The notes: generated by a model not told the origin, from the sequence alone. A DNA stretch of 64,000 bases from Candidatus Aenigmatarchaeota archaeon (GCA_038999725.1 JAWBWS010000003.1:29464-93463), one strand, 5' to 3'. Shown: positions 2,930-26,375, counted from the first letter of the stretch. Numbers and translations: made by a program.

Positions 2930-2954
2930 ATATAAGTAAGAATATCTTACTAAT

Positions 2955-3233: not shown

Positions 3234-3484
3234 TAAAAGAGGTAATTTGGACTCAAAAATTTGAGGATGAGTTCAAGAAAGTTAAAGATACTGCTATTAA
3301 AGAAAGGATTAAAAAACAAATTGAAAAAATTATTAAAAATCCTGATGTTGGCAAACCTTTGAGGTTCGAGTTAAAGGGGGAGAGAGCAGTTTACATTAAG
3401 TCCTACAGACTTATTTATTCTGCCATCGGAGATAAGTTATACCTTCTAAGATTTGAGCATAGAAAAAAAGTCTATAGAATTTGA
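3227..3484 (+). CDS. RelE/ParE-family type II toxin
   Basis: 85 aa, basic, with C-terminal YRLIYSAIGDKLYLLRFEHRKKVY typical of RelE/ParE; follows the antitoxin in the same orientation. Confidence 0.65.
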   Translation: MVIKEVIWTQKFEDEFKKVKDTAIKERIKKQIEKIIKNPDVGKPLRFELKGERAVYIKSYRLIYSAIGDKLYLLRFEHRKKVYRI

Positions 3485-3572
3485 ATAGGTTTGTCTATCG
3501 CTTATGTCGATGAAGTATATTTTCATTTTAAAGCAAAGATATAAATAGTTCGCGGAAACATAGTAGTAGCTG

Positions 3573-4175: not shown

Positions 4176-4199
4176 AACATGAAATTTATTATGAAATTT

Positions 4200-9125: not shown

Positions 9126-10397
9126 TCAAAACAGCATGAATTTCCTCTTAATTAAAATTAGGGCTAAAATTATTGCTAACAAGATTAAACCCACCACTAC
9201 TACTGGGTTTGATAAAGTATCGAGTATGATTTCTCTTGTGGACTTAATGGGAATTGTGGTTGTTGTGGTTGGGAGCGTGGTTGTTGTGGTTGGGAGCGTG
9301 GTTGTTGTGGTTGGGAGCGTGGTTGTTGTGGTTGGGAGCGTGGTTGTTGTTGGTATGTAGGGTGGTATGGTGGTTGTGGTAGTAGTTGGGGCAGGTGAAC
9401 TTCCAAACATGCCAAACAAGCTGAAGCTTGTCACATTAGCATATACAAAATTGTTGACTGTATCCACACATCCAAAAGTTGGGCATGGTAAAGCATTCCA
9501 ACTTGTTCCATTCCACTTGTACAATCTTAAAGTGCTTTCATCCAGTCCCGCAACTTCATCATGGGTATAGCTGACATTAATGATAACATAAGCCAAGTTA
9601 TTTCCCAGCTCGGGACTCACCCTTATGTCCAAGAATTTAACTGGATGTAGACCCGGAATTCCAGGTGTTATGTTGCCTGTGAATGTTGTCACATTCACAT
9701 TTACATCTGATACAGTAGCATTTGTAACTATTCCCAAACTTGTGTCAGTCTCAGCAGCTAGAAGGATAAGTGTGAATATATTTTCAAGTATTTCTTGAAT
9801 TGTTTTTGAATCCTTTCCTTTAAGTCCTTCTGGCTCTTCTGGAGGCAGGATTTCAATTGTTTTATTTTTGCTGAATTTGTCCCCATTGGCATAAACTGTT
9901 AAACTAATCTTATAGGTGGTTGGTGTTATTGGGACTTTCCACCTCACATTAAATCTTAAAGTGGCAGAAGCACTCCCATACCCGTAACCATAGCCATAGC
10001 CCCAATAGTATGGTGTGCCTTCCCAATACCCATACCCGTAACCATAGCCATAGCCCATTGGTGGAACAAATTCTGTTGTAACATTAATTCCTTGACAGTG
10101 AGTTGTTTCTCCATCACTTAACTCTATATTACAACTAATTCCTGTGCCAGCAATTGGCTCAATTTTTAGTGTAACATTAGCTATAGGAATTAACTCTCCC
10201 GCATTTGTGTTTATTTCTATTGGGAAGCTTATGGTTTCCCCTCCTCTTGCTTCTGAGGGGGATTTTATATCAATCACAAAAGCTGCAAGCGGTTTTGAAG
10301 AAAGAATCAGGAAAATAAGAATAGAAGAGATGAGGATAGAAAATATTCTCTTCTTAAAAAAATTCTTGTCAAGCTCGTAAGATTTTATAAACTTCAC
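9126..10397 (-). CDS. cell-surface protein with GY repeats, a (L/I)PTTTTT repeat linker and a C-terminal TM anchor
   Basis: N-terminal hydrophobic segment; GYGYGYGYGYWEGTPYYWGYGYGYGYG; a 70-aa domain homologous to the protease C-terminal domain (YANVTSFSLFGMFG vs WANTSHFSIFGLFGA); TLPTTTTT x4; TM plus KRKFMLF. Confidence 0.65.
   Translation of the reverse strand: MKFIKSYELDKNFFKKRIFSILISSILIFLILSSKPLAAFVIDIKSPSEARGGETISFPIEINTNAGELIPIANVTLKIEPIAGTGISCNIELSDGETTHCQGINVTTEFVPPMGYGYGYGYGYWEGTPYYWGYGYGYGYGSASATLRFNVRWKVPITPTTYKISLTVYANGDKFSKNKTIEILPPEEPEGLKGKDSKTIQEILENIFTLILLAAETDTSLGIVTNATVSDVNVNVTTFTGNITPGIPGLHPVKFLDIRVSPELGNNLAYVIINVSYTHDEVAGLDESTLRLYKWNGTSWNALPCPTFGCVDTVNNFVYANVTSFSLFGMFGSSPAPTTTTTTIPPYIPTTTTLPTTTTTLPTTTTTLPTTTTTLPTTTTTIPIKSTREIILDTLSNPVVVVGLILLAIILALILIKRKFMLF
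9256..9360. repeat. about 5 tandem copies of a 21-nt unit (gtggttgttgtggttgggagc) encoding the LPTTTTT linker on the minus strand
   Basis: Direct reading of the sequence; it lies inside CDS 9126..10397. Confidence 0.85.
9975..10056. repeat. duplicated 26-nt block (catacccgtaaccatagccatagccc) encoding GYGYGYGY
   Basis: Two copies about 52 nt apart inside CDS 9126..10397. Confidence 0.7.
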
Positions 10398-10417: not shown

Positions 10418-11656
10418 TTGAAGAACTACCTTAAATACTTTATTGGAAGAATGATAGCCCAAGCCTTTATTACAACCTCAGCCGTTTTTCTTGGAATGGG
10501 TCTAAACTATTTGTTCCATTTCTTCATGACAAGGCTTTTGAGTCCAAGCTTATATGGAGAGATTTCAATTTTAATCGGGTTTTTAACCATCATATTAGTA
10601 CCCACAGGTAGTATACAAACTGTTTTAACAAGAGAAATTGCAAAGTTAGAGAAAAGGGGGAATGAAAGAGTTATAGTCGGTTTGATAAGGAGATATTTGA
10701 GAAGCGCTTTTCTTGTAGGTTTAACTATTGCTTTGGTTTTATTCTCTTCTTCCTATATGATTGCCAAGATTTTCAAGGACGACCAACTCATTTCATCTAT
10801 TCAGTTACTGTCTCTTGGCATTCCATTCCTGTTTTTACTTCCTATATTCAAGGCATATTACCAAGGAAGGGAGAAGGTTTTTACTCTCTCAGGAATTTTG
10901 GCTGTTGAACCTTTGATAAAATTGGTCTTTGGTGTAGGCCTGGTTTTGATTGGTTTTGGATTATCTGGAGCAACACTTTCCCTAATCGCTGGTCCCATCA
11001 TTTTGGTTTTCCTTCTTCTTCCAAGAACAATTAAAATGACAAGTTTCCCCAACTATTCCATCAAATTGAAAAAATCCTTTTTCCTCATTCTTCTCACTTC
11101 AATTTCCTTAATGATTTTCTTTTATCTTGATTTGTTCTTTGTGAGATATTATCTTGGTTCAGAGCAAGCAGGCTATTACAATGTGGCTTCAATAACTTCT
11201 AAAGTTTTGTCTTACGCAACTGGTGGAGTTGTTTTGGTTTTTCTTCCAAAATCTTCCAAGCTATCCATTAAAAAGGAGAGGGGAAAAATTAAAACTTTGT
11301 TGCTTAAGTCAATCGCATTTATTACCCCAATCTTCATAGTTTTTGTGCTCTTCCCAAAGGAAATCATCTCAATTTTCTACACAGAAAAATATCTTTTTGC
11401 CTTAGGTTCCTTTACAATCCTAACCTTTGGGATGTTCATCTTTTCAATTTTCCAAATCCTTCTCTCCTTCTTTTGGTCTCAAAATTCCGAAAGGTTTCCA
11501 TTGGTTCTTTCCATTACAGCAACCTTAATTGATTTCCTACTTTTGAATTATTTCATTCCAATTAAAGGAATTGAAGGAGCAGCCATTGCAACCACACTCT
11601 CTTCCCTGGTTTTTCTCCTTCCCTCAATCTTTGTTGTTAGGGGTATGCTGATTTAA
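10418..11656 (+). CDS. polysaccharide/oligosaccharide flippase (MOP/Wzx-like), multi-pass membrane protein
   Basis: 412 aa with about 12 hydrophobic helices; its size and topology fit Wzx/MATE-like flippases; sits in a glycosyltransferase context. Confidence 0.55.
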   Translation: MKNYLKYFIGRMIAQAFITTSAVFLGMGLNYLFHFFMTRLLSPSLYGEISILIGFLTIILVPTGSIQTVLTREIAKLEKRGNERVIVGLIRRYLRSAFLVGLTIALVLFSSSYMIAKIFKDDQLISSIQLLSLGIPFLFLLPIFKAYYQGREKVFTLSGILAVEPLIKLVFGVGLVLIGFGLSGATLSLIAGPIILVFLLLPRTIKMTSFPNYSIKLKKSFFLILLTSISLMIFFYLDLFFVRYYLGSEQAGYYNVASITSKVLSYATGGVVLVFLPKSSKLSIKKERGKIKTLLLKSIAFITPIFIVFVLFPKEIISIFYTEKYLFALGSFTILTFGMFIFSIFQILLSFFWSQNSERFPLVLSITATLIDFLLLNYFIPIKGIEGAAIATTLSSLVFLLPSIFVVRGMLI

Positions 11657-13097
11657 AGAAGTAGATGTTGCCTTTCAAATTTACCAAATTTTCATTTTGG
11701 CATTTTACTGGGGAATAAACCAAAGAAATGTTGTTTTCCACCAAAAAGCTTGTGTTGGTGCAGTTCTGCTTAAAAAATTTGTAGGCATTATCCACAAGCT
11801 CAAGATATTTTTCATCTGGACCAAAAGGCATCACAGAGTAAACTCTTCTTTCAGCTATTGTTGCAAAAGCTCTTGCTTTCCATGGATCTAGCAGAACTAT
11901 CGTATCTTCTCTCGTATTTTCCTTAATCCATAGAAAGTTTTCATAATCTTCATCGTCAATCAAATAATAGTAAGGAGTTTTCAAGTTTCTTTCAATTGCA
12001 AGGAAAGAGGTTGCAACCAGGGAAATTAAAAGCAAAGCTGAACCGAAATTCTTGAACGGTTTTTCCATTTTTAGGAGTTTGGTGTAGCCAAAGCTTGCTA
12101 TTATTGACATGAGCAAGAACAAGGGAATGTAAGTCCTTTGGTAAGGGATCAACCAGTTCAAGTTTAGCCTGACGAAAAGGAAGATGTTGAGGGTTAAAGT
12201 TAAAGAAGTGAGAAGCAAGGCCCAAATCTCTTTGCTTTTTGTTTTTGCTAGAAAATAAAATCCTAAAATGAAAGATCCTGTCGGCAAGAAGCCATAAAGA
12301 GATGGGATTTCCCTCAGGTAGAACCAAAAGTTGAACTGAACCGCTTTTATTCCTTTTGTTTGAATCTCTGGGATGTAGTTTGGCAAGGAGAACAAAATCG
12401 AAGCTATTAAAACGGATAAAATTTCTTTTGCTTTTTGCTTGTTTTTTAAATTGAGCAAGAGGTAAAATCCAAGGATTGTTAATAAAACCATTGCTGTCGG
12501 TGGATGTGTATAAAGGATGAAGGTTGTTATGGCGAATAAAGCTAAATGGTTGTAGATGGGTTTGAGGTTTGTGAGTTCAAAAGCAAAGAGAAGAGCCAGG
12601 GGGATGAAGATCAAACTTAAATTTATTGGAACCAAAAACACAGGCCCACCTATTGTTACATTACTTGGAACCAAAGCTATCAATAAAGCTGAAATCAAAG
12701 CCTCCTTTTTGCCAAAAATTTTTGAAGTGAAATAAAAAACCGAAAGAATTGATAGAAAGTGGAAAAGAATTGGGAGGAAAACCCATTGTTTTACACTTAG
12801 GTTAAAAAATTTTTGGATGAAAGCTAAAGTTAAGTGCCAACCTCTTTCCAAACCTAATTCAAATGGCTTGCCAGAATACCAATCTATTTTTTGGTTTGAG
12901 GCTATCATTTTTGCCACAGAAATGTGAAACCATTCGTCTACATGCAAAGGGTAAGGGTAGTTCAAGTGGGGGTAAAAGGTTAGGAAAGAGGCTAAGAAAA
13001 GGATGAAAATCAAGCAAGCTATTTCCTTATTTTCAATTTTCTCTCTTCTCTTAGATATTCTATTATTAGGCATGCTACACCAACAACCAATAGCCAA
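11637..13097 (-). CDS. GT-C fold membrane glycosyltransferase-like protein (PMT/ArnT-like), putative
   Basis: Multi-TM protein with an acidic DE-type motif (HVDEWFH) in the first extracytoplasmic loop region, plus a C-terminal soluble domain. Confidence 0.4.
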   Translation of the reverse strand: MAIGCWCSMPNNRISKRREKIENKEIACLIFILFLASFLTFYPHLNYPYPLHVDEWFHISVAKMIASNQKIDWYSGKPFELGLERGWHLTLAFIQKFFNLSVKQWVFLPILFHFLSILSVFYFTSKIFGKKEALISALLIALVPSNVTIGGPVFLVPINLSLIFIPLALLFAFELTNLKPIYNHLALFAITTFILYTHPPTAMVLLTILGFYLLLNLKNKQKAKEILSVLIASILFSLPNYIPEIQTKGIKAVQFNFWFYLREIPSLYGFLPTGSFILGFYFLAKTKSKEIWALLLTSLTLTLNIFLFVRLNLNWLIPYQRTYIPLFLLMSIIASFGYTKLLKMEKPFKNFGSALLLISLVATSFLAIERNLKTPYYYLIDDEDYENFLWIKENTREDTIVLLDPWKARAFATIAERRVYSVMPFGPDEKYLELVDNAYKFFKQNCTNTSFLVENNISLVYSPVKCQNENLVNLKGNIYFFKSAYP

Positions 13098-13381
13098 TAG
13101 GTATAAATTGCTAATTGGTTTGCTAAAACTTCATTTTTGTAAAATGCCAAAACAATTGCTGCTAAAAAAAGTATCAGCAAAGCATAGGCTACAGGAATTC
13201 TTCCATCAAATTTGAAGAAGGTAAAAATTGGAATTAAGGCAATGAAAGACAAGAAAGTTGGCATGTCTTGAGATTTGAAAATGAAGTGGGATAAAAAAAT
13301 GGAAAAAACCACTAAAATGTAAGGAAGTTGTAATTTGGGGTCAGCCATTTTCTTTTTGATTTTTTTGGTCAAAGTGCCCAT
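13019..13381 (-). CDS. small 3-4 TM membrane protein (GtrA/DUF2304-like size class), hypothetical
   Basis: 120 aa and hydrophobic; sandwiched between two GT-C-like genes. Confidence 0.35.
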   Translation of the reverse strand: MGTLTKKIKKKMADPKLQLPYILVVFSIFLSHFIFKSQDMPTFLSFIALIPIFTFFKFDGRIPVAYALLILFLAAIVLAFYKNEVLANQLAIYTYWLLVVGVACLIIEYLREERKLKIRK

Positions 13382-16300
13382 TTTTTAGACCTTTTCTTTA
13401 AAATTTTTGGTAGAAACAATTTTTTAAAACTGATGTTTTTGCCTTTTTTCCAATCATAGATTAAGTAACCAATGCAAGCTATGAATGTTATACCGGAAAT
13501 CACTAAACCAATCTCAAACCACTCTTGAGGTTTATATCTTATTTCTATTTCATATTCTCCAGTCTTATTTATCCAGAAGCCGTTTATAACTCCATACAAA
13601 GGTATGGAGTGGTATTCTACCGTTTTTCCATTCTCCTTTATTCTTGCAACCCACAAAGGATCATAACTTTCAGCAAAGCTCAGCATGAATGGCTTAGAAG
13701 CATTCACTTGGACTTTCCAGAGGGTTGGGTCGATTTTTTGATAGCTGAGGACTTGAGCTGGAGTTTCGTTCACTTTAAATAAATCTTCTATTTTTTCATC
13801 TGAAGTGTTGGATTCTACCGAATATATCCAAGCTACATCAAGATAAGTTAACGGATATCCGTAAATTGTAACATTTTTTACCCAAACTATATTTGGAATG
13901 GGTTGCTTAGTTTCATGGCCGTGCCATATTTGTAACTGAATATACGCAACGGAAGTGTTTTTAGGCTTATACTCGTAGTTTATTTCCTTCCAGTCAAATG
14001 TTCCTTCTCCTATTCCTCCAGCATAAACACCACCAATATACTGCTTCGAAGAGTTGTATTCAAATATTTTGAAATGGACGCTTTGCCCATTCACTGCTTT
14101 GACAAAAAAGTCAAATTTATATTTCACCCCATATTTTGCTGGAATTAAAGGCGAGTTAATTGTTTTCCACCCCCAAGTTGAATTATAAAGTTCTGTTCTG
14201 AGAGCTTTTTCTTTTTCATCCCAGAAAACTTTGTATATTTGGCTTTCTTTGGTGTATTGTTTCCATTCTTCCACTTCTTCTTCATAAAAGTTCCAAGTAA
14301 ATGGTTGTAGAGTTGTGTCTGGCTCTATTTGAATTTTGTGTGGCCCTTTTTCTAAATAAATTGGCCCAAAATAGGTAAAGTTGTTGGAAGTAATTGAAAA
14401 GCTTTGATTATCAATTCTTATTTTTAAAGCTCCATACAAGTTTATGGCAAATCTGTAGAAGCCATTCTTAACAAATTCAAATTCTCGCCAGGCTTTTCCA
14501 CTTGGCGTTATGACCAAAAATTCTCCATTACTTGCTTTACCGTACTTTTCTTTCTCAGCATTTTCCCTGTAAAAATCACTCTCGCCTTCAAAGAGGTAAA
14601 TTATAGTTTTATTCCTCAACATCTCTTCAACTTCTTTTTCTTTTCTAGCTAGTTCATCACTTGTAACCAGAGCAAACAAATTGATAGCATTGAAACCTTT
14701 AATGTTCCTCAAGATGAGTTTGTGCTTACCTTTCTCCAAATAAAATTCTCCCAAATCTCCCCAAACAAATTTGTTTAATTGTTCTAAAGTGTTGAGTGAA
14801 ATCTCTTTGTTGTCTAAGAAAATTTTTATTGATCCTCCTTTTTGATTTTTAAAGTATCTTATGAGTAAATGATAATTTTCAGTCTTTTCTAGCTTAAAAT
14901 TTATTTCTAGGTCATTTGACTCTGTAAATTTAGATAGATCGTAGAGTTTAACATAATCTAGCCAATAATATGAGTTGGTTTGATTGTTTTGCCAAACCCA
15001 AAACTGTATCTTTATATATTTAGAGTCAGAAGGTATTAAAATTGTAGAGGAGAATTCCTTCCAATCAAATGTTTCATCTTGAGTAATAAAAACAAAATCA
15101 ACTTTTATTTCTTCTTTCTTCTCGTTAAAGTAAATTATCTTTGAATGAACTCCTTTAGAATCTTTACCGGATATTAAAACTTTACACTGATACCAATTGT
15201 CCGGTTTTATTGGCAAATAGTCAGTAGAAATAACTTTCCATCCCCATTCATCACCTTTTTTAATTTCAACTTGTAGGCTATAATTATCATCCTTTGATTT
15301 GGTTGAACTTGTAATATTCAGCACAAGAGGGCTCAAATTTGTAAAGTTTTGTAGAAATTTAGAATCGAAATTATAAATTAGATCATCATCTGTAGGTACT
15401 ATCTTCTCTTTTAACTTAGAAGGTGCCCATGTGAAAACCAATCCTTCACCATAATCTGATTGCCAGTTTTCTATTCCAAATTGTTCTAGGTAAGGATGCC
15501 AGCCCCCATGAAGAGGGTCAGAAGTTGATGCTCTTGACCATAGCTTTGACGGGTTGTGGCGATATGTAGAGTCGAATGTTTTTATCAAGAAAGAATTTTT
15601 GGAAAAGATATTAGAATAAAAATCTGGATTAATTTCTAATTCTGTGGCCTCATTCTCATTCATTCCTGTTAAAACTGACAAAGAATTATTAAGCAAAGAT
15701 AACGAGCCCAATAATTTATAATCAAAATCTTTTGATGATGCTATTTTATTTTTAATGTAGATATTCTTTATTTCGTCTCTTTCTGGCAAATATATGTTAA
15801 TCCCTTCTTTCGATTCTGGATAAATATAATAAATTTTTGGGTTTTCGATTTCTAGATTTGTGATTAAAGCATCTGCTCCAGTCAAATAAGAAATATAATA
15901 AATTGTTTTTTCATCACCTTTTTTGAAAGAATGTTTTAGATATCTACTCAAATCATTTGGAAGATTTATGTAAGGTTTTCCAGTATGATGCGCTTTGAAA
16001 TTTCCTTGATAATTAGAAAGTAAAACTATGGATTTGTTATAGGGTGCTCTATCATAATGTTCTCTATCTTCGAAATAATAACCTTTTCTAAGAATCCCGT
16101 CCAAATCACCTGTAAATCTCTGCCATCCGATAATTAAAGATGATAAAATTATAATAATGCATAAAATTATTCCAATTTTTTTAAATTTCCTCATTCTAAA
16201 AATCCAAGAAAGCAAAGAAAAAATGCAAAGTGAATAACCTAAAACTACTAACGATCCAAAATAGCCAGGAACTCTAAACATCCAACCAATAGAGGGGTGG

Positions 16301-17379
16301 GTTGAAAATAATAGAAACTCATAAAATCTAGAAAAAATAGGATTAAAGTTGGTAATTCCTCTCCATAGAAAAATTCCCAATAATAAATTTGAGCTACCAA
16401 CCACCACCAAGAATTTTTCTTCTCTACTATATCTATTGAATAAAAGTATAGAAACCATCGCTAAAATAGGAATCAAGAAAAGTATAATATTAAAAATGCT
16501 TTCTGGAATAAATGGAAATGGCTTTAATTGTAGATATGGCCACCATGATGCCTTTAAAGTTAAAATGTCAGCAGGTTTATAAGCAGATGAAAACATATAC
16601 GTTGCTTCATAAGATAGCATATAGGAGGGACTAATTTTAGAGATGGGACCAATTGCTGGCAAAAACCAATAAAAATTAAAGAGTAGTAAAAAAATAGAAA
16701 TAAAAATATATTTTTTAATAATTTCTTTCAAAAAAGAAATAGTCCCTCCATAGAATATTATATACAAACTTGTAGTGATAGATAACAAAATAAAGATAAA
16801 TATAATATATCTGAAAATTGGAGTAATTGATAACGTAATTAACAAACACAAAAATAATTTTGATTTTAAATTTTTACTTCTTAAAAAATAAAGTGTAGCT
16901 ACAATTATTGTTGGGAGAAGCGAGTAAGATATTACATAGGTGTTAGGAGGTGAAAATGCTTGTATGGTATATGGATTAATAGAAAATAAAAAAGCAAAAA
17001 CAATAGATAATAAAAAAATGTTTTTATTATCGAATCCAAACAGATTTTCAATTAAATAAAAAAGAGACAGATATGGTATTAAAAATATACATATAAAATA
17101 AAAGATACAATATAATCTTGAAGATATTTCTATTTTAGAGGATAGTGAAGGAATGGTTGCTAACCACAATCTTGCTATTCCTTCATAAAATTGATATGAG
17201 CCATAGTTTGACCAAGTAAAAAAATATTGTAAAATCAATTGTGGAAAGGGTGGAATTATTACATCTCTATGTTCTACAATAATGGAAGTATTTTCGAAAA
17301 GTAAGTAACTTATACTCAAAATTCCAGTAAGCAGACTGAGCAATAAAGCAATAAAATGATATTTGTATGTTTTTGACAT
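13369..17379 (-). CDS. giant (1336 aa) polytopic membrane protein with a large extracytoplasmic beta-rich domain containing two homologous carbohydrate-binding-like repeats and a C-terminal TM; putative GT-C type glycosyltransferase (AftD/DUF3367-like architecture)
   Basis: The N-terminal ~450 aa are multi-TM. An internal repeat is visible: WKVISTDYLPIKPDNWYQCKVLISGKDSKGVHSKIIYF vs WKTINSPLIPAKYGVKYKFDFFVKAVNGQSVHFKIFEY. C-terminal TM IGLVISGITFIACIGYLIY. Confidence 0.45.
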   Translation of the reverse strand: MSKTYKYHFIALLLSLLTGILSISYLLFENTSIIVEHRDVIIPPFPQLILQYFFTWSNYGSYQFYEGIARLWLATIPSLSSKIEISSRLYCIFYFICIFLIPYLSLFYLIENLFGFDNKNIFLLSIVFAFLFSINPYTIQAFSPPNTYVISYSLLPTIIVATLYFLRSKNLKSKLFLCLLITLSITPIFRYIIFIFILLSITTSLYIIFYGGTISFLKEIIKKYIFISIFLLLFNFYWFLPAIGPISKISPSYMLSYEATYMFSSAYKPADILTLKASWWPYLQLKPFPFIPESIFNIILFLIPILAMVSILLFNRYSREEKFLVVVGSSNLLLGIFLWRGITNFNPIFSRFYEFLLFSTHPSIGWMFRVPGYFGSLVVLGYSLCIFSLLSWIFRMRKFKKIGIILCIIIILSSLIIGWQRFTGDLDGILRKGYYFEDREHYDRAPYNKSIVLLSNYQGNFKAHHTGKPYINLPNDLSRYLKHSFKKGDEKTIYYISYLTGADALITNLEIENPKIYYIYPESKEGINIYLPERDEIKNIYIKNKIASSKDFDYKLLGSLSLLNNSLSVLTGMNENEATELEINPDFYSNIFSKNSFLIKTFDSTYRHNPSKLWSRASTSDPLHGGWHPYLEQFGIENWQSDYGEGLVFTWAPSKLKEKIVPTDDDLIYNFDSKFLQNFTNLSPLVLNITSSTKSKDDNYSLQVEIKKGDEWGWKVISTDYLPIKPDNWYQCKVLISGKDSKGVHSKIIYFNEKKEEIKVDFVFITQDETFDWKEFSSTILIPSDSKYIKIQFWVWQNNQTNSYYWLDYVKLYDLSKFTESNDLEINFKLEKTENYHLLIRYFKNQKGGSIKIFLDNKEISLNTLEQLNKFVWGDLGEFYLEKGKHKLILRNIKGFNAINLFALVTSDELARKEKEVEEMLRNKTIIYLFEGESDFYRENAEKEKYGKASNGEFLVITPSGKAWREFEFVKNGFYRFAINLYGALKIRIDNQSFSITSNNFTYFGPIYLEKGPHKIQIEPDTTLQPFTWNFYEEEVEEWKQYTKESQIYKVFWDEKEKALRTELYNSTWGWKTINSPLIPAKYGVKYKFDFFVKAVNGQSVHFKIFEYNSSKQYIGGVYAGGIGEGTFDWKEINYEYKPKNTSVAYIQLQIWHGHETKQPIPNIVWVKNVTIYGYPLTYLDVAWIYSVESNTSDEKIEDLFKVNETPAQVLSYQKIDPTLWKVQVNASKPFMLSFAESYDPLWVARIKENGKTVEYHSIPLYGVINGFWINKTGEYEIEIRYKPQEWFEIGLVISGITFIACIGYLIYDWKKGKNISFKKLFLPKILKKRSKKWAL

Positions 17380-17381
17380 AA

Positions 17382-18404
17382 CTACACTTTTATTTTTGAT
17401 TTAAACTTTTTTTTCATTAGACGAAAAGATTTGCTAAGAGGTATAATTAAATTTTTCTCTCTCGGTTCTTGTAATCTTTTTTTTCTTATCTCTTTTGGAA
17501 TTTGACGGAAAAAGGCCAAAATACCATTGATTATATTTAAGCAATTTCGTGGATTCTTATATAATACTATATTTATCATAGCCTCGAAAAGAGTAAAAAT
17601 CAAAGAAATAGGAATATATTTAATTGATTCTACTGGTGTATAATTTCTAAATAATGTAATTAATTTGTTTCTGATAAACAACGATTGATAAAAGTTTACA
17701 TCTATTTTTTTCTTGTTTATAGTCCCTGATCTTATATGATATATAACCGATGTCGGTACAACGTAGCTTTTATATCCAATTTTGCGGGCCCTCCAACAAA
17801 AATCAACATCCTCATAGTACATAAAATAATCTTCATCAAAAAGGTATCCAACCTTTTGGATAACCTCTCTCTTTATGAACATTGATGCCCCCTCACAAAA
17901 GAAAACTTCAAAAGGATTCTTCAATAAGTGTTCAGGTATTACATCTATTGAGCTGAAAATGTTTCCAATAACATTCATAAAGCCAAATGTAATATCATAT
18001 TTATCTCTTTCAAAATAATTAAACATTATTGGTTGCGCAATACCTACATCCTTGTTTTTTTCTAAAAAATTAATCATATTCTTGAGCCAGTATCTATCCA
18101 CTTCTATATCATTACTTAGCAAAACTATATACTCACCCTTTGCTTTCTTTATACCTATATTGTTTGCTTTCGAGTATCCAACATTCTTCTCTAATTTAAT
18201 TATTTCAATTTTTATACGTTTTTTGTCAGAATGTTTATACACCATTTTTTTAAATAATTCATCGCTGTTATCTGAAGAGCCGTTATCAACAAAAATTATC
18301 TCATAATTTGGATAATCTAAATAAAAAAGCGACTTCCAAAGATTAGAATATTTTGCTCCATTAAAATTTAATAAAATTATACTTACTAGGGGCATTTTGT
18401 TCAT
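17382..18404 (-). CDS. family 2 glycosyltransferase
   Basis: VSIILLNFNGAKY...EIIFVDNGSSDNS is the GT2 N-terminal signature. Confidence 0.8.
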   Translation of the reverse strand: MNKMPLVSIILLNFNGAKYSNLWKSLFYLDYPNYEIIFVDNGSSDNSDELFKKMVYKHSDKKRIKIEIIKLEKNVGYSKANNIGIKKAKGEYIVLLSNDIEVDRYWLKNMINFLEKNKDVGIAQPIMFNYFERDKYDITFGFMNVIGNIFSSIDVIPEHLLKNPFEVFFCEGASMFIKREVIQKVGYLFDEDYFMYYEDVDFCWRARKIGYKSYVVPTSVIYHIRSGTINKKKIDVNFYQSLFIRNKLITLFRNYTPVESIKYIPISLIFTLFEAMINIVLYKNPRNCLNIINGILAFFRQIPKEIRKKRLQEPREKNLIIPLSKSFRLMKKKFKSKIKV

Positions 18405-18407
18405 TTT

Positions 18408-18845
18408 CTACCACAACAAATTATTTTTATCTAAAAGTAACCAAGTTTTGGGTAGATCTTCTGATTTATTTATGTTGATATTTATACCATTAATAAATTC
18501 ACCATAAGCCATCCCATCTCCAGCAACTAATCCAATAGTAGTGTTAATTTCTTTTTCGTTACATGGTAATGTAATAGATGTCTTTTTAATATAATTAAAT
18601 ATTTTCTCAGTGAAAATATTTAAATAATTCTCTTTAGCTAACTCCTCTACTACTATAGTTTTTTCGAAAGACAATTTTATTAAATTTTGTAAATAATATA
18701 TGAATTTTTCTATTATGTAATGAATTGTAGGTTTGTCATAAAGTGGTAATAATGGTTTTGGTAAAATATAACCCGAGAATCCAATTCTACTTCCCATTCC
18801 AGTAGTAGGGATAACACCTTCTTTAATTTTACTTATCTTGGCCAT
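18408..18845 (-). CDS. degenerate paralog of a sugar-phosphate nucleotidyltransferase (internal ~120-aa deletion; probable pseudogene)
   Basis: The N-terminus (KIKEGVIPTTGMGSRIGFSGYILPKPLLPLYDKPTIHYIIE) and C-terminus (EKEINTTIGLVAGDGMAYGEFINGINININ) align with CDS 21004..21792, but the central domain is missing. Confidence 0.5.
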   Translation of the reverse strand: MAKISKIKEGVIPTTGMGSRIGFSGYILPKPLLPLYDKPTIHYIIEKFIYYLQNLIKLSFEKTIVVEELAKENYLNIFTEKIFNYIKKTSITLPCNEKEINTTIGLVAGDGMAYGEFINGINININKSEDLPKTWLLLDKNNLLW

Positions 18846-19861
18846 ACTTTTTCTCCCCTCAAAATTTCAGACCATCCAAAAGGTTTCATCAATTTTATAA
18901 TTATATCATCAGAAACTTTTCTGATATTTTTTTGAACATAATTTCTTTTCCTTATCAAAATTTTAAGATTAAAGAAGTTCCACAAAATTGCTTTCATTGT
19001 TGCTTTAGCTTGGTCAAAGCGACGAATCATAAGATAATAAAATACCGAGGCAAAATATACTACCAAAGTTATAGGCAACCACCTAATTAAATTTTTCATT
19101 TCATAACATTTTATTATAGTTTGTATAATATTTTTTCTTCCATGAAAAGCGACAAACTCAACTGGAAGCTTTTTCATCGTAGCCGATCTCTTATGTAAAA
19201 CAACAGATTTAGGAACATAAACAATTTTATATCCTGCCAACCAAATTCTAAGAGACGAGTCAGTATCATCATGGAGAATTACATAATCGTCGTCAAAAAA
19301 TTTACCTCCAATTTCGTTTATCAAATTTTTTCTAAACAATACTGGAGTTTGCCATATTAGACATATATCTGGTTTATCATCATTTAAATCGGTAGCTCCT
19401 ACCACAATTCCTGCTGGATTTATCGTTATTCCTCTTGCATCTATTTCATTTAGATTATTCCATTTAAGCTTCTTACCAAAGACTGCTCCGATTGTTTTAT
19501 CTTTTTCTATTATTTCTACTAGCTTCGTTAACCAATCTGAGCGTAAAGCTTTATCATCGTTATTTACTAGACATATGTATTCTCCAGTAGCATAAGTTAT
19601 TCCGGCATTACATCCGCCGGCAAATCCTAAGTTCTCTTTATTCCTTACTATTTTTGTTTTTATATTCGGATATTTTCTAAAAAGTTTTTCCACAAATTCA
19701 ACACTTTTATCATAAGAAGCATTATCAACAAAAATGAACTCTAATTCTGGATAATCTGTTTTCAAAAAGGATTCTACTGCTTCTAAAAGTTCTTTCTTTC
19801 CTGAATACATTTCTCCATTATAATTTACCATAATAATTGATACTTTTTTCATTTTATCCAT
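18833..19861 (-). CDS. family 2 glycosyltransferase
   Basis: VSIIMVNYNG...EFIFVDNASYDKS. Confidence 0.8.
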   Translation of the reverse strand: MDKMKKVSIIMVNYNGEMYSGKKELLEAVESFLKTDYPELEFIFVDNASYDKSVEFVEKLFRKYPNIKTKIVRNKENLGFAGGCNAGITYATGEYICLVNNDDKALRSDWLTKLVEIIEKDKTIGAVFGKKLKWNNLNEIDARGITINPAGIVVGATDLNDDKPDICLIWQTPVLFRKNLINEIGGKFFDDDYVILHDDTDSSLRIWLAGYKIVYVPKSVVLHKRSATMKKLPVEFVAFHGRKNIIQTIIKCYEMKNLIRWLPITLVVYFASVFYYLMIRRFDQAKATMKAILWNFFNLKILIRKRNYVQKNIRKVSDDIIIKLMKPFGWSEILRGEKVWPR

Positions 19862-20939
19862 TAGTTAATTCTAGAATTTTTTTATTTAATTCATCGAAGT
19901 TGTCAGTAATTATAATATTTTTAAATTTTTCAAATCCTCTCGCACCCATTTCTGTTGAAATAATTGGTTTATTAAATTTTAAATAATCGAAAATTTTTAT
20001 TTCAACACCAGTATCACAGATGGTTTTTGGATTTATAAAAGCGTCGCAAAGGCTTAGATACGAATCTAGATCTTTCACAAAGCCTTTAAGAATAACATTA
20101 CTAGGTATATTCTCTCTTTTTTTGAACACATCACAAACTTTTCCCAATATTAAAAAGACAATGTTTTTATCCTCCAGTTTCTTTGCAATCTTAATTATGT
20201 TTCTTACACTAATTATGTTAGGCTCAAATTTTGCTCCTACAAATCCAATTACAAACTTATCCTTCAAAATTTGTTTTAGTTTTTTTGGTGGTTTTAATTT
20301 CCTTTTTTTACGAGTGATATAAAATGGTAACAATACAGATATCTTTTTAGGTGAAACTTTATGATGGATTAGGATTTTTTTATCATTATCTGACAAACAA
20401 ATGACCAAATTCGATTTTTTAATTGCATCTAATTCTATATATCGGATTAACCAAATTAATGGTTTGTATATTTCTTTTCTACCTGTTAATTCGTAAAATA
20501 ATTTCCACTCAACATTATGTTCATAGAGAGCGCAAGGAATACCCAAGTTATTAGAAATTTGGGAGATAATTCCTGTAAATGTTGGATAATTAGAAATAAT
20601 TAGATCTGGTGTCTCTCTTTTTATTAATTCTCTTATTCTTCTTTTCCATATAAAATCCACTTTAGATATATAGTGAATGAAAATAAAGAAAATCAAATTC
20701 AATAACCATCTTTTTTCCGAACTTTGATAGTTCTCAGATAAGCCCCTCTTTTTTAAAGAAAAATATTTCATTATTTTGGAGGTAATGGATCCGACATTTG
20801 GAAGTGAAAGACATTTTACTTTATAGCCAAGTTTTTCTTCAAAGAACTTTTTTTGCCTCCAAATAAGAGAGGCTCCGCCGAAAGAATGTTTACTCACTTC
20901 TCTATTGCTGTTGGGATGAATTATTAAAATATTTTTCAT
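19854..20939 (-). CDS. GT-B fold glycosyltransferase (GT4-like)
   Basis: 361 aa with two Rossmann-like halves; C-terminal EMGARGFEKFKN resembles the GT4 E-x7-E region. Confidence 0.6.
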   Translation of the reverse strand: MKNILIIHPNSNREVSKHSFGGASLIWRQKKFFEEKLGYKVKCLSLPNVGSITSKIMKYFSLKKRGLSENYQSSEKRWLLNLIFFIFIHYISKVDFIWKRRIRELIKRETPDLIISNYPTFTGIISQISNNLGIPCALYEHNVEWKLFYELTGRKEIYKPLIWLIRYIELDAIKKSNLVICLSDNDKKILIHHKVSPKKISVLLPFYITRKKRKLKPPKKLKQILKDKFVIGFVGAKFEPNIISVRNIIKIAKKLEDKNIVFLILGKVCDVFKKRENIPSNVILKGFVKDLDSYLSLCDAFINPKTICDTGVEIKIFDYLKFNKPIISTEMGARGFEKFKNIIITDNFDELNKKILELTNG

Positions 20940-20963
20940 CCCCTCACCTTACTCACCAAATAT
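20935..20963. repeat. 29-bp exact direct repeat (copy 1) ttcatcccctcaccttactcaccaaatat
   Basis: Identical to 23411..23439. It contains the start codon and an SD-like GGTGAGGGG upstream of the downstream minus-strand gene. Confidence 0.9.
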
Positions 20964-21038
20964 AGAAAAGAGAGATTTCCATAGAGAAGAGAATCTACCT
21001 CCATTATAGTTTAGTAAAATAATACTCACTAAGGGCAT
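20949..21038 (-). pseudogene. 29-aa N-terminal remnant of a GT2 glycosyltransferase (MPLVSIILLNYNGGRFSSLWKSLFSIFGE*)
   Basis: Hand translation of the minus strand. It matches the N-terminus of GT2 17382..18404 (MNKMPLVSIILLNFNGAKYSNLWKSLF). Its start overlaps the 3' end of the nucleotidyltransferase gene and its stop lies inside the 29-bp repeat. Confidence 0.6.
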
Positions 21039-21792
21039 TTTTTTCACGCTTCACCCCATCCCTAATGATAAGCCAGGCCTTTAGTAAATTTTCTGGGTCA
21101 TTAATATTTATGTTTATTCCATCTATAAATTCGCCATAAGCTTTTCCATCTTTGGCAATTAATTTAATAGTGTTAGTAATTTCTCTTTCATTTCTCGGTG
21201 GGGCTATTGGGGTTTTCTCTATATAATCAAATATTTTTGTGTTAAAGACATATATTCCAGTGCCTCTAATTTTTGAGATAATTTTCTGTGGCTTTTCTAC
21301 TATTTCAATAATTTGATTATCTTTATTGAGTTTAACACAACAAGTAGATCTAAGGGTGTTTTCATCATTTTCACTTACTAAACCTTCAACTACTATCGCC
21401 TTTTTTTGAAAAAATGTTTCTATCAAATTTTGGAGGGAAGCTGTTATTGTGCAGTCGTCTCCAAGAATAGTAATAAATGGTTCATTAATGAAATCCTTCA
21501 CAGAATAGATGGTTGAAGCTATACCGCGTGTTGGCCTTTTTAATTCTATCAAATGAATTTTGGCATTTATAAATTCTTTTGTCTTTTTAAAATACTCTCT
21601 AAATTTTTCTTTGTGATAAAAAATAGGTATATATATTTCTTTAACCCCAACTTTTAACATATTTTCTATTATGTAATGAATTATTGGCTTGTCGTAAAGC
21701 GGGAATAGCGGTTTTGGTAAAATATGACTTAAATATCCCATCCTTTTTCCTTTTCCAGCAGAAGGTATTACGCCAATTTTTATTTTATTCAT
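21004..21792 (-). CDS. sugar-phosphate nucleotidyltransferase (NTP-transferase fold, RmlA/GlmU-like)
   Basis: GVIPSAGKGKRMG...ILPKPLFPLYDKPIIHYIIE N-terminal nucleotide-binding signature; 262 aa. Confidence 0.8.
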   Translation of the reverse strand: MNKIKIGVIPSAGKGKRMGYLSHILPKPLFPLYDKPIIHYIIENMLKVGVKEIYIPIFYHKEKFREYFKKTKEFINAKIHLIELKRPTRGIASTIYSVKDFINEPFITILGDDCTITASLQNLIETFFQKKAIVVEGLVSENDENTLRSTCCVKLNKDNQIIEIVEKPQKIISKIRGTGIYVFNTKIFDYIEKTPIAPPRNEREITNTIKLIAKDGKAYGEFIDGINININDPENLLKAWLIIRDGVKREKNALSEYYFTKL

Positions 21793-21814
21793 CTTTCCCC
21801 GCCTTTCTTAAATC

Positions 21815-22519
21815 TTACTTTTTTGCTGAAACATATAAAAATCTTGAAAATGCAGATCCAAATAATATCTTTAAAAGTTGTTCTGTCCATAAAATAATTT
21901 TTAGAAGAAATTTATTTGAAGTTTTATATAAAATGTCAGGTAATTTTGGACCATATTCTATTCGATTTATAGAAAAATTGTTTTTCCTAAGAATTTTTAA
22001 TAACTCGCTTTTAGATACTCGATTATAAGGAAGTTTGTGAAAAACATTCGCTCTATTTATTGAATATTTATTTGGCATTGAAAATACAAATATACCATCT
22101 CTTTTAAGAACTCTGTTAATTTCATTTAGAACATATCCTAAATTATTAACATATTTTAATACCCTAATTGCGTAAATGAAGTCAAAGGCTTCATCCCTAA
22201 AAGACAATCCTTTAGAAATATCGCATTTTAATATATTAACAAATCTAAATCTTTTTAGTTTTTCTTTGCATCTATTAACCATTTCTTCGGATATATCTAC
22301 CCCCGTAAATCTCACATTTTTTTTCACAACTTCTTTAGAAATTCTGCCAGGTCCAGTACCAATTTCTAAAACATTAATTTTATTTTTTCTGCTTGGAAGA
22401 TTTGATAAAACAAAATTTATTTCATTTTTGCTTATAATCTCCATTCCTTGCGCTCTATATGAATCCAGATACTTTTCACCTAAATAATTATAATATTTTT
22501 TGACATCCACTTTAATCAC
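21815..22519 (-). CDS. class I SAM-dependent methyltransferase
   Basis: Motif I VLEIGTGPGRIS followed by an acidic residue after beta2 (GVDISEEMV). Confidence 0.75.
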   Translation of the reverse strand: MIKVDVKKYYNYLGEKYLDSYRAQGMEIISKNEINFVLSNLPSRKNKINVLEIGTGPGRISKEVVKKNVRFTGVDISEEMVNRCKEKLKRFRFVNILKCDISKGLSFRDEAFDFIYAIRVLKYVNNLGYVLNEINRVLKRDGIFVFSMPNKYSINRANVFHKLPYNRVSKSELLKILRKNNFSINRIEYGPKLPDILYKTSNKFLLKIILWTEQLLKILFGSAFSRFLYVSAKK

Positions 22520-23415: not shown

Positions 23416-23439
23416 CCCCTCACCTTACTCACCAAATAT
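23411..23439. repeat. 29-bp exact direct repeat (copy 2)
   Basis: Identical to 20935..20963. Here it encodes the C-terminus YLVSKVRG* of GT2 23412..24272 and the start of 22516..23415. Confidence 0.9.
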
Positions 23440-24435: not shown

Positions 24436-25521
24436 TCACTTCTTTTTTATAACCATTTTTATAATCTTCTCGAACTCTTTAGCACTTCTATCCCAATCAA
24501 ACTTCCTAGCCCATTCCAAAGCATTCTTACTCAATTTACTCCTTAGCTTCTCATCCTCTAAAACTTTTATTATGGTTTGAGCCAAAGCCTTGGGATTGTT
24601 TTCAACCAACATTCCATTGTAATTATCTTTCAAAGAGTCCCTTAACCCCGGAACATCGTAAGCTATGGCTGGTGTCGCTAATGCATTAGCATCTGTAACA
24701 ACTTGCCCCCAACCTTCCCTTACTCCAGGCACGACAATAACCCAAGCCTTTTTCATCAACTCAATTTTCTTTTTTTCATCTAAATATCCAAAAAACCTAA
24801 CTTCCCCCGTTGATATTTTTTCCAATTTTCTTCTCAAATAGCCATCGCCGACCATCCATAATCTAACATCGCTCATCCTTCTCCTCACAATCTTAAAAGC
24901 TTCCAAGACATCTTGAGGCTTTTTTGCCCTTTTCATCCTCCCAACAAAAATTATTGTTGGTTTCTCGGCTTTTTTTGGAGGTTTTTTAAGAGGCTTAACA
25001 TTTGCCCCATTGTGAACAATAAAGACTTTTTTAAACCCTAAGCTCAGCAAATCCATTTTTGTGCTTTCTGAAACGGTGATTGTTGGGATATCAATGTAAT
25101 TCTTTAACCACTTGTTCTCGAGCCAGTAATAGCCAATCCAACTTATTGGAAAAGATGTCTCATAAAACCAAAATTCCCTTGCTAGCTGATGAATTAGACA
25201 AATTACTTTCTCCCCCCTGACAAACTTTGGGGCAAAAAATGGTATTGTGTTGATTTCATCTATTACTACATCAAACCCCTCTTTAGAGAAATACTTTTTG
25301 TAATATTCTTTCGCCTTTAAGTAGAGGGAATACTTTCCACCCTTTCTAACAATTCTTATCCCCTCTAGGGACTCCTCTTTCTTACAGCCTGGAAATTCTG
25401 AGGTAAAGAGTGTGACTTCATTCCCTTTTGCTATCCTCTTGAAAATTTCATGTGTGTATCTCTCTGCTCCCCCAGCCTCAGGATTTTTTATGTCTCTCCA
25501 ATTGAACACCAATATCTTCAT
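24436..25521 (-). CDS. GT-B fold glycosyltransferase (GT4 family)
   Basis: C-terminal EGWGQVVTDANALATPAIAYDVPGLRDSLKDNYNGMLVE matches the GT4 E-x7-E region. Confidence 0.75.
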   Translation of the reverse strand: MKILVFNWRDIKNPEAGGAERYTHEIFKRIAKGNEVTLFTSEFPGCKKEESLEGIRIVRKGGKYSLYLKAKEYYKKYFSKEGFDVVIDEINTIPFFAPKFVRGEKVICLIHQLAREFWFYETSFPISWIGYYWLENKWLKNYIDIPTITVSESTKMDLLSLGFKKVFIVHNGANVKPLKKPPKKAEKPTIIFVGRMKRAKKPQDVLEAFKIVRRRMSDVRLWMVGDGYLRRKLEKISTGEVRFFGYLDEKKKIELMKKAWVIVVPGVREGWGQVVTDANALATPAIAYDVPGLRDSLKDNYNGMLVENNPKALAQTIIKVLEDEKLRSKLSKNALEWARKFDWDRSAKEFEKIIKMVIKKK

Positions 25522-26375
25522 TTCCTCAACCCATCATAATATCTTAAAATCTTCAAACGATAGAAGATTGCAGCAGTATCCAAAACAATCCTCATCACAT
25601 CCCTTACCTTAACTCTACTACCAATCCTTTGAAAGTGTAATTCAACAGGAGCTTCAACAATTCTGAATCCTCTGTGGTTAGCGTTGACGAGCAACTCCAA
25701 GTCAAAAGCATATTTCTTGCACAAAACTCTTGGGAAAACTTCTTTCAAGACCTTATATTTAAAGAGTTTTAAGCCAGCTTGTGTATCTCTTACACTCAAA
25801 TTAAACAAAAATTTTGTTATTAATTGATAACCGTAGCTTAAAATCCTTCTATGTAAAGGATAATCAATTTTTGACAAAGGATGTCTTTTCGAGCCGACAA
25901 CAACATCTGCACCATACTTCTTCATGAAATCAATAAATAAAGGGATTTGTTTAGGATGCAAATCTAAATCAGCATCAATAAAAGTAATGAGTTTTCCGGA
26001 ACAAAAATTGAACCCATATTTTAAGGCAGACCCCTTGCCTCCATTTTCTTTCCTAATAACTCTTACCCTTCTATCTCCTCTAGCAGCTTTTATTGCTTCA
26101 TCGTAAGTGTTATCAGAAGAGCCATCATCAATCACAATTATTTCATAGTCCAATCCAGAAGCATCAAGCACTTTCTCTATTTCTCTTATACTCTTGAATA
26201 TAATCCTACCTTCATTCCAAGCTGGAACTATTACAGATAGTTCTTTCATTTTCACTCTCTCCTTAAATTTAAGTAAGAAAAACAATAAAAAATAATTTCC
26301 ATCCTTGCTACTCTTGCAGCAAGACAAGCGACTTTTGTATTGAAAGAAAATAAAGCTTTTGTCAAGAGGCTTCAA
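25518..26375 (-). CDS. GT2 dolichyl/polyprenyl-phosphate sugar synthase-like glycosyltransferase (DPM1/AglJ/GtrB-like); the true start is probably the internal Met at MKELSVIVP
   Basis: LSVIVPAWNEGRII...EIIVIDDGSSDNT...KGSALKYGF is the signature of Dol-P-sugar synthases. Confidence 0.7.
   Translation of the reverse strand: MKPLDKSFIFFQYKSRLSCCKSSKDGNYFLLFFLLKFKERVKMKELSVIVPAWNEGRIIFKSIREIEKVLDASGLDYEIIVIDDGSSDNTYDEAIKAARGDRRVRVIRKENGGKGSALKYGFNFCSGKLITFIDADLDLHPKQIPLFIDFMKKYGADVVVGSKRHPLSKIDYPLHRRILSYGYQLITKFLFNLSVRDTQAGLKLFKYKVLKEVFPRVLCKKYAFDLELLVNANHRGFRIVEAPVELHFQRIGSRVKVRDVMRIVLDTAAIFYRLKILRYYDGLRK

Follow-up and report, generated by a model that had tools for sequence, protein, structure and literature searches.

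What is the function of a large multi-pass membrane protein that carries a long outward-facing region and is encoded, together with numerous glycan-related genes, in the genome of a DPANN archaeon of the Aenigmatarchaeota? The window considered here is the whole stretch of DNA that was analyzed, 64 kb in length; its strands are denoted (+) and (-), and residue numbers refer to the large protein unless stated otherwise.

Reading frame and domain organization of the large protein

The open reading frame at 13369..17379 (-), with an ATG start and the stop codon at 13369-13371, is intact and encodes 1336 aa. The public NCBI record of this gene is only 1029 aa long, starting at M308; because the orthologs are 1343-1358 aa long and cover 98-99% of the length of the 1336-aa product, the longer reading is the correct one. 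A hydropathy scan and an AlphaFold model place 11 TMs within aa 5-417, and the helix arrangement of the N-terminal membrane domain (aa 1-430; 16090..17379 (-)) is that of the GT-C fold, with a long first outer loop (aa 23-82) that includes two short juxtamembrane helices, and further outer loops at aa 235-292 and aa 344-370. The ectodomain that follows (aa 431-1289) is almost entirely beta and is closed by a C-terminal TM (aa 1290-1308; 13456..13512 (-)), the equivalent of TM12 of the mycobacterial enzyme AftD, and by a basic cytoplasmic tail of 28 aa (aa 1309-1336; 13372..13455 (-)) that lacks the TM13-16 bundle. The ectodomain contains 18 N-x-S/T sequons, compared to 7.4 expected from its composition; this enrichment, along with the basic tail, fits an outward-facing ectodomain. 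The first-pass annotation described a polytopic protein of 1336 aa with duplicated modules, ~850 aa of extracytoplasmic sequence (859 aa by the present boundaries) and a closing C-terminal TM, all of which is borne out by the intact reading frame, the TMs and the module homology described below; its "about 450 aa" for the multi-TM N-terminus captured the right region, with a slightly generous length.

The order of domains is an 11-TM GT-C fold, a mixed alpha/beta domain, four beta-sandwich modules, two of which are of the CBM4/22 type, a terminal beta-sandwich, and one re-entry TM. The mixed alpha/beta domain (aa 431-535; 15775..16089 (-)), delineated from the secondary structure of the model, directly follows TM11 and opens with the conserved motif WQRFTGDLDG. 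The two CBM_4_9-like jelly rolls, A (aa 688-818; 14926..15318 (-)) and B (aa 1045-1188; 13816..14247 (-)), share a homologous core at about aa 697-818 and 1057-1177; module A also yields a profile match to CBM4 of the laminarinase 1gui. A BLASTP comparison aligns aa 712-813 of module A with aa 1069-1173 of module B at 27% identity over 106 aa (E 3e-14), and a profile-profile comparison, with profiles built from 14-15 orthologs, reports the probability of 100% (E 1.2e-52, 121 columns). Accordingly, the homology of these modules, which had been noticed at first pass, holds, whereas their length is ~120-130 aa rather than ~150 aa. Modules A and B are separated by another duplicated pair, smaller in size and absent from the earlier description: the beta-sandwich S1 (aa 819-906, Y-L-IRY...GG-I-I-LD...FVW...G-H-L; 14662..14925 (-)), kept across the broad family, and its homolog S2 (aa 927-1028; 14296..14601 (-)), with hhalign detecting the similarity of aa 823-908 to aa 926-1025 with the probability of 96.9% (E 1.3e-10). 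The C-terminal beta-sandwich (aa 1200-1285, FAESYDPLW...INGFWI...Y-PQ-WF; 13525..13782 (-)) shows the strongest conservation of any part of the protein when distant relatives are compared (P0016: 37% identity, E 5e-27).

The CBM_4_9 profile (PF02018) scores 19.1 bits against the 1336-aa protein (cut-off 25.9; E 0.0017), and matches its orthologs with E-values down to 3.9e-9 and other family members down to 6e-26. The beta-jelly-roll fold of the CBM-like modules superposes on ligand-binding CBMs. A Foldseek search started with the multi-domain C-terminal model returned only generic multi-jelly-roll matches, with AftD at rank 37.

Relationship to AftD and conserved residues

The large protein is an uncharacterized member of a known enzyme kind and a distant relative of AftD. 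The layout had been likened to that of AftD/DUF3367 GT-C enzymes, and this likeness is supported, with a sequence link that is indirect and passes through intermediate proteins. The PF11847 profile (GT-C_AftD, formerly DUF3367; gathering score 26 bits) does not match the 1336-aa protein at E <= 0.1, and only one of the 36 sampled family members matches it at E <= 1e-3. An HHalign comparison of the family N-terminal profile with PF11847-positive proteins, which reach or come near the Pfam threshold, gives the probability of 99.9% (E 2.3e-35, 486 columns). The profile of these relatives, in turn, finds AftD in the PDB (E 0.02): their equivalent of aa 431-535 aligns to AftD 410-570, the soluble GT-C domain, and their equivalent of aa 1200-1285 aligns to AftD 1208-1283, the C-terminal beta-sandwich and TM together giving a match below threshold. 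The intermediate sequences were needed because PDB searches started with the 1336-aa protein or with close-family profiles never reached AftD directly. Among other Pfam families, DUF6541 matches the 1336-aa protein with E 0.0033. The suggested relationship to DUF2206 (PF09971) does not hold, with no match in this protein or in 15 orthologs. The C-terminal beta-sandwich and TM of a distant relative (P0024) match the C-terminus of YfhO with E 1e-5, below the cut-off.

Several residues of the membrane domain are strongly conserved. GT-C enzymes have a conserved acidic residue in their first outer loop; here this is D39 (17263..17265 (-)), in the EHRD motif just after TM1. The close family keeps it without exception, 35 of the 36 broad family members have Asp at this position, and it is a candidate catalytic or donor-binding residue. 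By inference rather than by alignment, it corresponds in position to K39/D41, which are essential in AftD. R369 (16273..16275 (-)), in the conserved GWMFRVPGYF outer loop, is Arg in 35/36 broad members, replaced by Lys in the remaining one, and is invariant in the other comparisons; N135 is kept in 35/36. The family signature HNPSKxWSxAxTSDPLHGxWHxYL..IENWQSDYGxGLVFTWA (aa 601-650; 15430..15579 (-)) includes W614 (36/36), D642 (35/36), Y643 (33/36) and G646 (35/36), as well as P610, D621, P622, H624, H628 and N638, which are invariant in the close family. The N-terminal model run was poor over aa 536-665, a stretch that includes the conserved DPLHG...DYG motif region. A reading of NW..DYG as a WWDYG-like motif was rejected on position and context. 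Judging from the alignments, the constraint at D39, N135, R369 and D642 appears to be typical of enzymes.

The family is large, with 2654 representative clusters at 50% identity, and abundant in metagenomes; it spans many archaeal phyla, and its lineages include Aenigmatarchaeota, Pacearchaeota, Thermoplasmatota, Halobacteriota, Methanomassiliicoccaceae, Ignisphaera, Brockarchaeota, Bathyarchaeia and Njordarchaeales. A genome scan for the close family, with two peptide patterns only, recovered at least 10 loci, with relatives in MAGs of Halobacteriota and Thermoplasmatota. Pfam coverage of the family is lacking, and at least one public record is too short. The statement that such proteins are poorly characterized in archaea stands: in the paper library searched, none links DUF3367 to archaea.

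Gene neighborhood and predicted role

The large gene is surrounded by a glycan cluster with genes for GT2 and GT4 glycosyltransferases, a methyltransferase, a sugar-1-P nucleotidyltransferase, a Wzx protein and a second GT2 resembling Dol-P-Man synthase; the first five gene types are found in the window as well as in the loci of homologs. On the upstream side, the gene adjoins that of a 340-aa GT2 glycosyltransferase (17382..18404 (-); Glycos_transf_2, E 8e-25), with 2 nt from the GT2 stop codon to the ATG, and the loci L001, L002 and L003 likewise have an ortholog of this GT2 in the abutting position. On the other side, the flanking small membrane protein and second GT-C-like gene reported at first pass were both recovered: a 120-aa 4-TM protein (13019..13381 (-)), a conserved partner whose gene overlaps the stop codon of the large gene, and a GT39/PMT_2-like GT-C (11637..13097 (-); PMT_2, E 7e-5) of 486 aa, or 478 aa in the NCBI call, which starts at 13073. 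P0171, a protein of identical sequence, bears the name "glycosyltransferase family 39 protein"; its homologs match PF13231 and PF20176. Convergent with this operon is a flippase of the Wzx/AglR type (10418..11656 (+); Polysacc_synt_3, E 6e-17), an arrangement repeated in L013. The second GT2 (25518..26375 (-)), located 8 kb from the large gene, is similar to polyprenyl-phosphate-sugar synthases and is a candidate supplier of a Dol-P-sugar donor; its best PDB match is Dol-P-Man synthase of P. furiosus (5mlz, E 8.5e-20), with ArnC and GtrB ranking next, and its NCBIfam matches are PgfS, ArnC, PpgS and AglJ. Relatives of this gene are found near large-gene homologs in L001, L002 and L004.

The large GT-C, the small 4-TM protein and the GT39-like GT-C form a module that is found in six loci; in the L018 locus, the slot of the large GT-C is filled by a 943-aa PF11847-positive protein. 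The small 4-TM gene follows the presence of the GT39-like gene, not that of the large GT-C. The 120-aa protein matches no known family, and in some lineages its homologs have a cytoplasmic zinc ribbon. Two identities were considered for it and rejected: a GtrA-type flippase (PF04138), with no match in six orthologs even at E <= 10, and a split-off TM13-16 of AftD, given that a profile search of the PDB did not return AftD and that the gene tracks the GT39-like gene. The best PDB match of the profile is 9r9a_B (E 0.034); the only paper citing this entry concerns a contractile injection system of Salmonella, and the match is treated here as compositional noise.

Taken together, these observations make it probable that the product of the large gene is an active GT-C glycosyltransferase that faces the extracytoplasmic side and belongs to the AftD-like superfamily; its most likely role is the addition of sugars, outside the cell, to a glycan of the cell surface. 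Under the proposed mechanism, a dolichyl-phosphate sugar would be synthesized on the cytoplasmic face, with the GT2 at 25518..26375 as a plausible synthase, and would then be flipped to the outer face, where the large GT-C would use it at a site composed of the membrane-proximal soluble domain and two outer loops, the first one with D39 and the one with GWMFR369VP. The sugar would be placed onto a glycan already on the cell surface, either a surface polysaccharide or a glycan N- or O-linked to a glycoprotein of the envelope. The CBM-like modules might keep the acceptor polymer close to the active site, by analogy with AftD and EmbC, in which CBMs hold the acceptor polymer in this manner. The gene would be part of a variable surface-glycan cluster, usually co-transcribed with those of the 4-TM protein and the GT39-like GT-C, and the latter probably belongs to the same pathway. 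This enzymology is conventional and does not amount to a new kind of system.

Another possibility is that the large GT-C is not a single-sugar, Dol-P-dependent transferase but an oligosaccharyltransferase, ligase or polymerase, such that Wzx flips a dolichyl-diphosphate oligosaccharide built by the GT2 and GT4 enzymes, and the large GT-C polymerizes it or transfers it en bloc to a protein or another anchor. We consider this unlikely. The best structural link and all sequence links lead to AftD-type enzymes, not to STT3, and an NCBIfam search of the 1336-aa protein gave no match, including to TIGR04154 and the STT3-type models. STT3, AglB and PglB have 13 TMs, with a DxD/ExD pair in outer loop 1 and a WWDYG motif immediately behind the final TM, whereas the 1336-aa protein has 11 TMs, D39 alone conserved in that loop, and a DYG motif (aa 642-644) ~220 residues past the last TM of the GT-C domain. 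AglB itself might be encoded elsewhere in the genome, given that 64 kb alone was seen. It is more doubtful still that the protein is a catalytically inactive member of the GT-C fold comparable to PIG-U and GAB1, namely, a membrane-anchored glycan-binding scaffold or adhesin that displays CBMs at the cell surface or organizes the partner GT39-like enzyme. That the ectodomain is a glycan hydrolase, lyase or peptidase, with the membrane domain as a mere anchor, is hardly credible, even if CBM4, CBM22 and CBM70 are usually attached to glycoside hydrolases or lyases, and a D/H-rich motif is conserved at aa 601-650.

An AftD-like transferase acting outside the cell is the preferred reading, and it provides a concrete candidate for the late, outside-membrane steps of archaeal surface-glycan synthesis. 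To our knowledge, CBM-bearing GT-C enzymes of the AftD type have been described solely for the cell wall of mycobacteria; here, a distant sister family is found to be abundant in metagenomes and present in many archaeal lineages. Surface glycans matter for the contact of DPANN archaea with their hosts and for virus attachment, hence the value of naming the enzymes that make them. The recurring three-gene module is a genetically testable unit. More speculatively, and with rather low confidence on our part, the three proteins might constitute a dedicated machine, widespread in archaea and so far undescribed, that builds or elaborates a surface glycan wholly outside the membrane, e.g., for a presumed archaeal O-glycosylation of Thr-rich envelope proteins, with the GT39-like enzyme priming Ser/Thr, the CBM-bearing enzyme extending the chain, and the fast-evolving large subunit setting the glycan "serotype".

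Comparison with known systems

The closest likeness is to AftD (the M. abscessus structures 6w98 and 6wbx), which shares with the 1336-aa protein the 11-TM GT-C domain, the alpha/beta soluble domain, the CBMs, the structural beta-sandwich and TM12. The differences are that the 1336-aa protein is archaeal, scores below the Pfam threshold, carries a second duplicated beta-sandwich pair, and has one TM after the ectodomain; it lacks the TM13-16 four-helix bundle that binds the acyl carrier protein in AftD and, therefore, the ACP site. AftD transfers arabinofuranose from decaprenyl-phosphate arabinose to arabinan; transfer of this kind is unlikely in an archaeon, and no DprE1/E2-like genes were seen in the glycan cluster.

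The YfhO-type systems (CsbB/GtcA/YfhO and GtrA/GtrB/Gtr-type) also combine a large GT-C with a polyprenyl-P-sugar synthase of the GT2 family and a small membrane protein encoded nearby, and YfhO itself resembles the 1336-aa protein in the N-terminal TM domain, the big outer domain and the single C-terminal TM. However, the 1336-aa protein does not match the YfhO profile (PF09586), the 4-TM neighbor is not GtrA by sequence, and the synthase candidate is not adjacent. The Emb arabinosyltransferases and GT136 (ORF12) are GT-C enzymes with C-terminal CBMs, the outer CBM binding the acceptor polysaccharide, but they differ in TM counts and domain orders and show no detectable sequence relationship to the 1336-aa protein.

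An archaeal precedent for the external addition of a sugar from Dol-P-Man is provided by the AglD, AglR and AglS proteins (PMC3871713); this step of Haloferax volcanii N-glycosylation combines a synthase of the GT2 family with a Wzx-like protein and a membrane-bound glycosyltransferase. AglS is a small enzyme without CBMs, unlike the 1336-aa protein. By gene types, the window can be set beside this system, with a GT2 similar to polyprenyl-phosphate-sugar synthases, a Wzx-like gene and two GT-C genes.

Reading frame, topology and domain organization

The gene for the large AftD-like protein (13369-17379, minus strand) is a single ORF encoding 1336 aa. Its orthologs, which are 1343-1358 aa long, cover 98-99% of the product, which confirms the full-length reading. 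An identical protein is deposited at NCBI (P0001, hypothetical protein QW040_02655, from a Candidatus Aenigmatarchaeota archaeon), but it is called from M308 at 1029 aa and so is missing most of its GT-C membrane domain; the ORF in the window, together with the lengths of the orthologs, shows that the protein is in fact 1336 aa long. According to hydropathy and the structure model, 11 TMs fall between aa 5 and 417 and one more at aa 1290-1308, after which comes a 28-aa tail rich in lysine and arginine. The 859 residues that separate TM11 from the last TM are nearly all beta in the structure model and contain 18 N-x-S/T sequons, compared with 7.4 expected from composition, as expected of an archaeal ectodomain.

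The two ectodomain modules that the first-pass annotation considered homologous are indeed so: aa 712-813 and aa 1069-1173 share 27% identity (E 3e-14), and a comparison of their profiles yields a probability of 100% (E 1.2e-52). Two smaller beta-sandwiches between them, S1 (aa 823-908) and S2 (aa 926-1025), form another internal duplication (probability 96.9%, E 1.3e-10). The region of the S1/S2 duplication (14296-14925, minus strand; aa 819-1028) is part of the core that is conserved throughout the family, which the CBM_4_9-like pair is not.

Searches started with the target itself give only sub-threshold Pfam hits, to CBM_4_9 (E 0.0017) and DUF6541 (E 0.0033), and no NCBIfam match. The N-terminal family profile, however, retrieves proteins bearing PF11847 (GT-C_AftD, formerly DUF3367) with E 1e-27 to 1e-21, and the profile-profile comparison with these proteins (probability 99.9%, E 2.3e-35, 486 columns) indirectly supports the AftD/DUF3367-like reading suggested from inspection. 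In turn, a PDB search with the profile of the PF11847-bearing relatives recovers AftD (E 0.02) across the soluble GT-C domain, and their terminal “ESYDPLW...NGF...PQ-W” beta-sandwich with its TM aligns, below threshold, with AftD 1208-1283. These stepwise links yield the following domain order: 11-TM GT-C domain; mixed alpha/beta domain; conserved D/H/W-rich signature (aa 601-650); CBM-A; S1; linker helix; S2; CBM-B; terminal beta-sandwich; and TM with cytoplasmic tail. The tests run reject membership in YfhO and in DUF2206, a family that the first-pass annotation named for comparison; an oligosaccharyltransferase identity is rejected as well, given the 11 TMs and the lack of motifs of that class.

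Family spread and conservation

When the profile of the N-terminal domain is searched exhaustively, 2654, 1151 and 216 representative clusters are retrieved at E <= 1e-3, 1e-10 and 1e-30, respectively; among 36 sampled members of the broad family, just one matches PF11847. A pattern-limited scan of species-representative genomes detects relatives in Pacearchaeota, Thermoplasmatota, Halobacteriota, Methanomassiliicoccaceae, Ignisphaera, Brockarchaeota and Bathyarchaeia, and database names add Aenigmatarchaeota and Njordarchaeales. Across the 36 members (target numbering), P241 and W614 are invariant; D39, N135, D642 and G646 are each present in 35, as is R369, with K in the remaining protein, and Y643 is found in 33. 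The two CBM_4_9-like modules are missing from the broad-family consensus, and other members contain CBM6 or CBM35 instead; thus, the CBMs are exchangeable add-ons to a constant core.

Genomic context and the three-gene module

The target gene is tightly packed within a minus-strand operon, with the stop codon of a GT2 gene 2 nt ahead of its ATG. Both flanking genes noted by the first-pass annotation are present: a 120-aa 4-TM protein gene (13019-13381, minus strand) overlaps the target stop codon and is itself overlapped by the gene of a GT39/PMT_2-like GT-C (11637-13097, minus strand). Upstream of the target are genes for two more GT2 enzymes, two GT4 enzymes, a sugar-1-phosphate nucleotidyltransferase and a methyltransferase, and in addition for a separate GT2 that, among solved structures, is closest to Pyrococcus Dol-P-Man synthase and next to ArnC and GtrB; a Wzx-type flippase gene is convergent with the operon. 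Over the glycan cluster (~16000-24000), G+C content is 27-29% vs 35-39% in the flanks, the fall starting within the large gene; such a drop is a common trait of variable surface-glycan islands. The cluster also includes a 145-aa ORF (18408-18845, minus strand), an internally deleted copy of the nucleotidyltransferase gene at 21004-21792 that retains ~45 N-terminal (E 8e-24) and ~70 C-terminal aa (E 3e-19) and is likely a decayed duplicate, and a 299-aa ORF (22516-23415, minus strand) with a Walker-A-like SPSRTGKT motif and no Pfam match.

Homologs of the large protein occupy similar clusters, with an orthologous GT2 gene directly abutting the start in 3 loci. Six loci share the gene order large GT-C, small membrane protein, GT39-like GT-C: the window, L007 and L013, which the large-protein scan picked up, and L016, L017 and L018, which were reached independently via homologs of the GT39-like protein. 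In L018, a 943-aa PF11847-positive protein occupies the large slot. Within the module, the small and GT39-like proteins each remain 40-74% identical to their counterparts, whereas the large protein drops to ~30-45%; in 2 further loci, the pair occurs with no detectable relative of the large protein. The most interesting by-product of the analysis is this conserved module; its small component is not assigned to any family.

The small protein represents a well-conserved unannotated family, with a conserved FDGRIP loop and ANQLAIYAYWLLVVG helix, for which Pfam searches matched neither GtrA nor any other family. Besides the window, it is encoded in L007 (7870-8376), L013 (7501-7845), L016 (6609-7064), L017 (6673-7011), L018 (6441-6932), L019 (5741-6037) and L020 (4728-5015), always upstream of the GT39-like gene, directly adjacent in 7 of the 8 loci and ~1 kb away in L020. 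The L007, L016 and L018 versions have a CxxC...CxxC zinc ribbon at the N-terminus. The GT39-like protein contains, in the loop following the first TM, an “HVDEW” Asp-Glu pair that is similar to the DE motif known from protein O-mannosyltransferases. Its gene is separated by ~1.2 kb, including the flippase gene, from that of a Thr-rich surface protein (9126-10397, minus strand), which hints at O-glycosylation. Two probable envelope proteins encoded beside the operon are candidate glycan acceptors: this Thr-rich protein, whose 423 aa include GYGYGY repeats, a stalk of mucin-like (T)4-5-LP repeats and a TM at the C-terminus, and an S8 subtilase of 1592 aa anchored by a C-terminal TM (4200-8978, minus strand).

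In the Methanomassiliicoccaceae locus of the homolog P0010 (L001), a separate 791-aa PF11847 paralog is encoded 3 kb upstream (2697-5072), so two AftD-like enzymes can share one cluster. In L021 (8004-13974), a distant GT39-like homolog (30% identity) is found among DUF1616 and DUF2206 membrane proteins; thus, DUF2206 occurs in related contexts, although the target itself does not belong to it. A type I phosphodiesterase/alkaline phosphatase superfamily protein of ~510-530 aa (Pfam Phosphodiest) is encoded immediately upstream of the large GT-C in L013 (2226-3752) and L007 (2144-3736), and inside the cluster in L003 (1046-2575); its presence may hint at phospho-sugar or phosphodiester decoration of the glycan.

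Proposed mechanism and relationship to AftD

Beyond the fold, homology, domain plan, conserved polar residues, topology indicators and gene context established for the target, we propose that, on the outer side of the membrane, it would transfer the sugar of a dolichyl-phosphate donor to a surface glycan that is already in place. Among archaea, AglD/AglR/AglS of Haloferax provide a precedent for an external step of this kind (PMC3871713). The CBMs would hold the acceptor, by analogy with AftD and EmbC, for which this has been demonstrated, and GT136, for which it has been discussed. By position only, D39 and R369 are proposed to be the counterparts of the essential D41 and K361 of AftD. An en-bloc transferase or polymerase would suit the Wzx-rich cluster, but the AftD-type links, the 11 TMs and the lack of oligosaccharyltransferase motifs speak against it. 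A non-catalytic scaffold is unlikely because residues are conserved at the expected active site, and none of the searches supports a hydrolase-type ectodomain.

The preferred reading is transfer of single sugars outside the cell, and among the closest known systems is AftD, a mycobacterial GT-C arabinofuranosyltransferase. The domain orders of the two match, except that the target has no equivalent of the TM13-16 bundle, which in AftD binds acyl carrier protein (Tan et al., bioRxiv 10.1101/2019.12.22.885152). Because it lacks both this bundle and the ACP site, does not match at the level of Pfam and would depend on another lipid carrier, the target is not an AftD ortholog; it nevertheless belongs to the same superfamily and would work like AftD.
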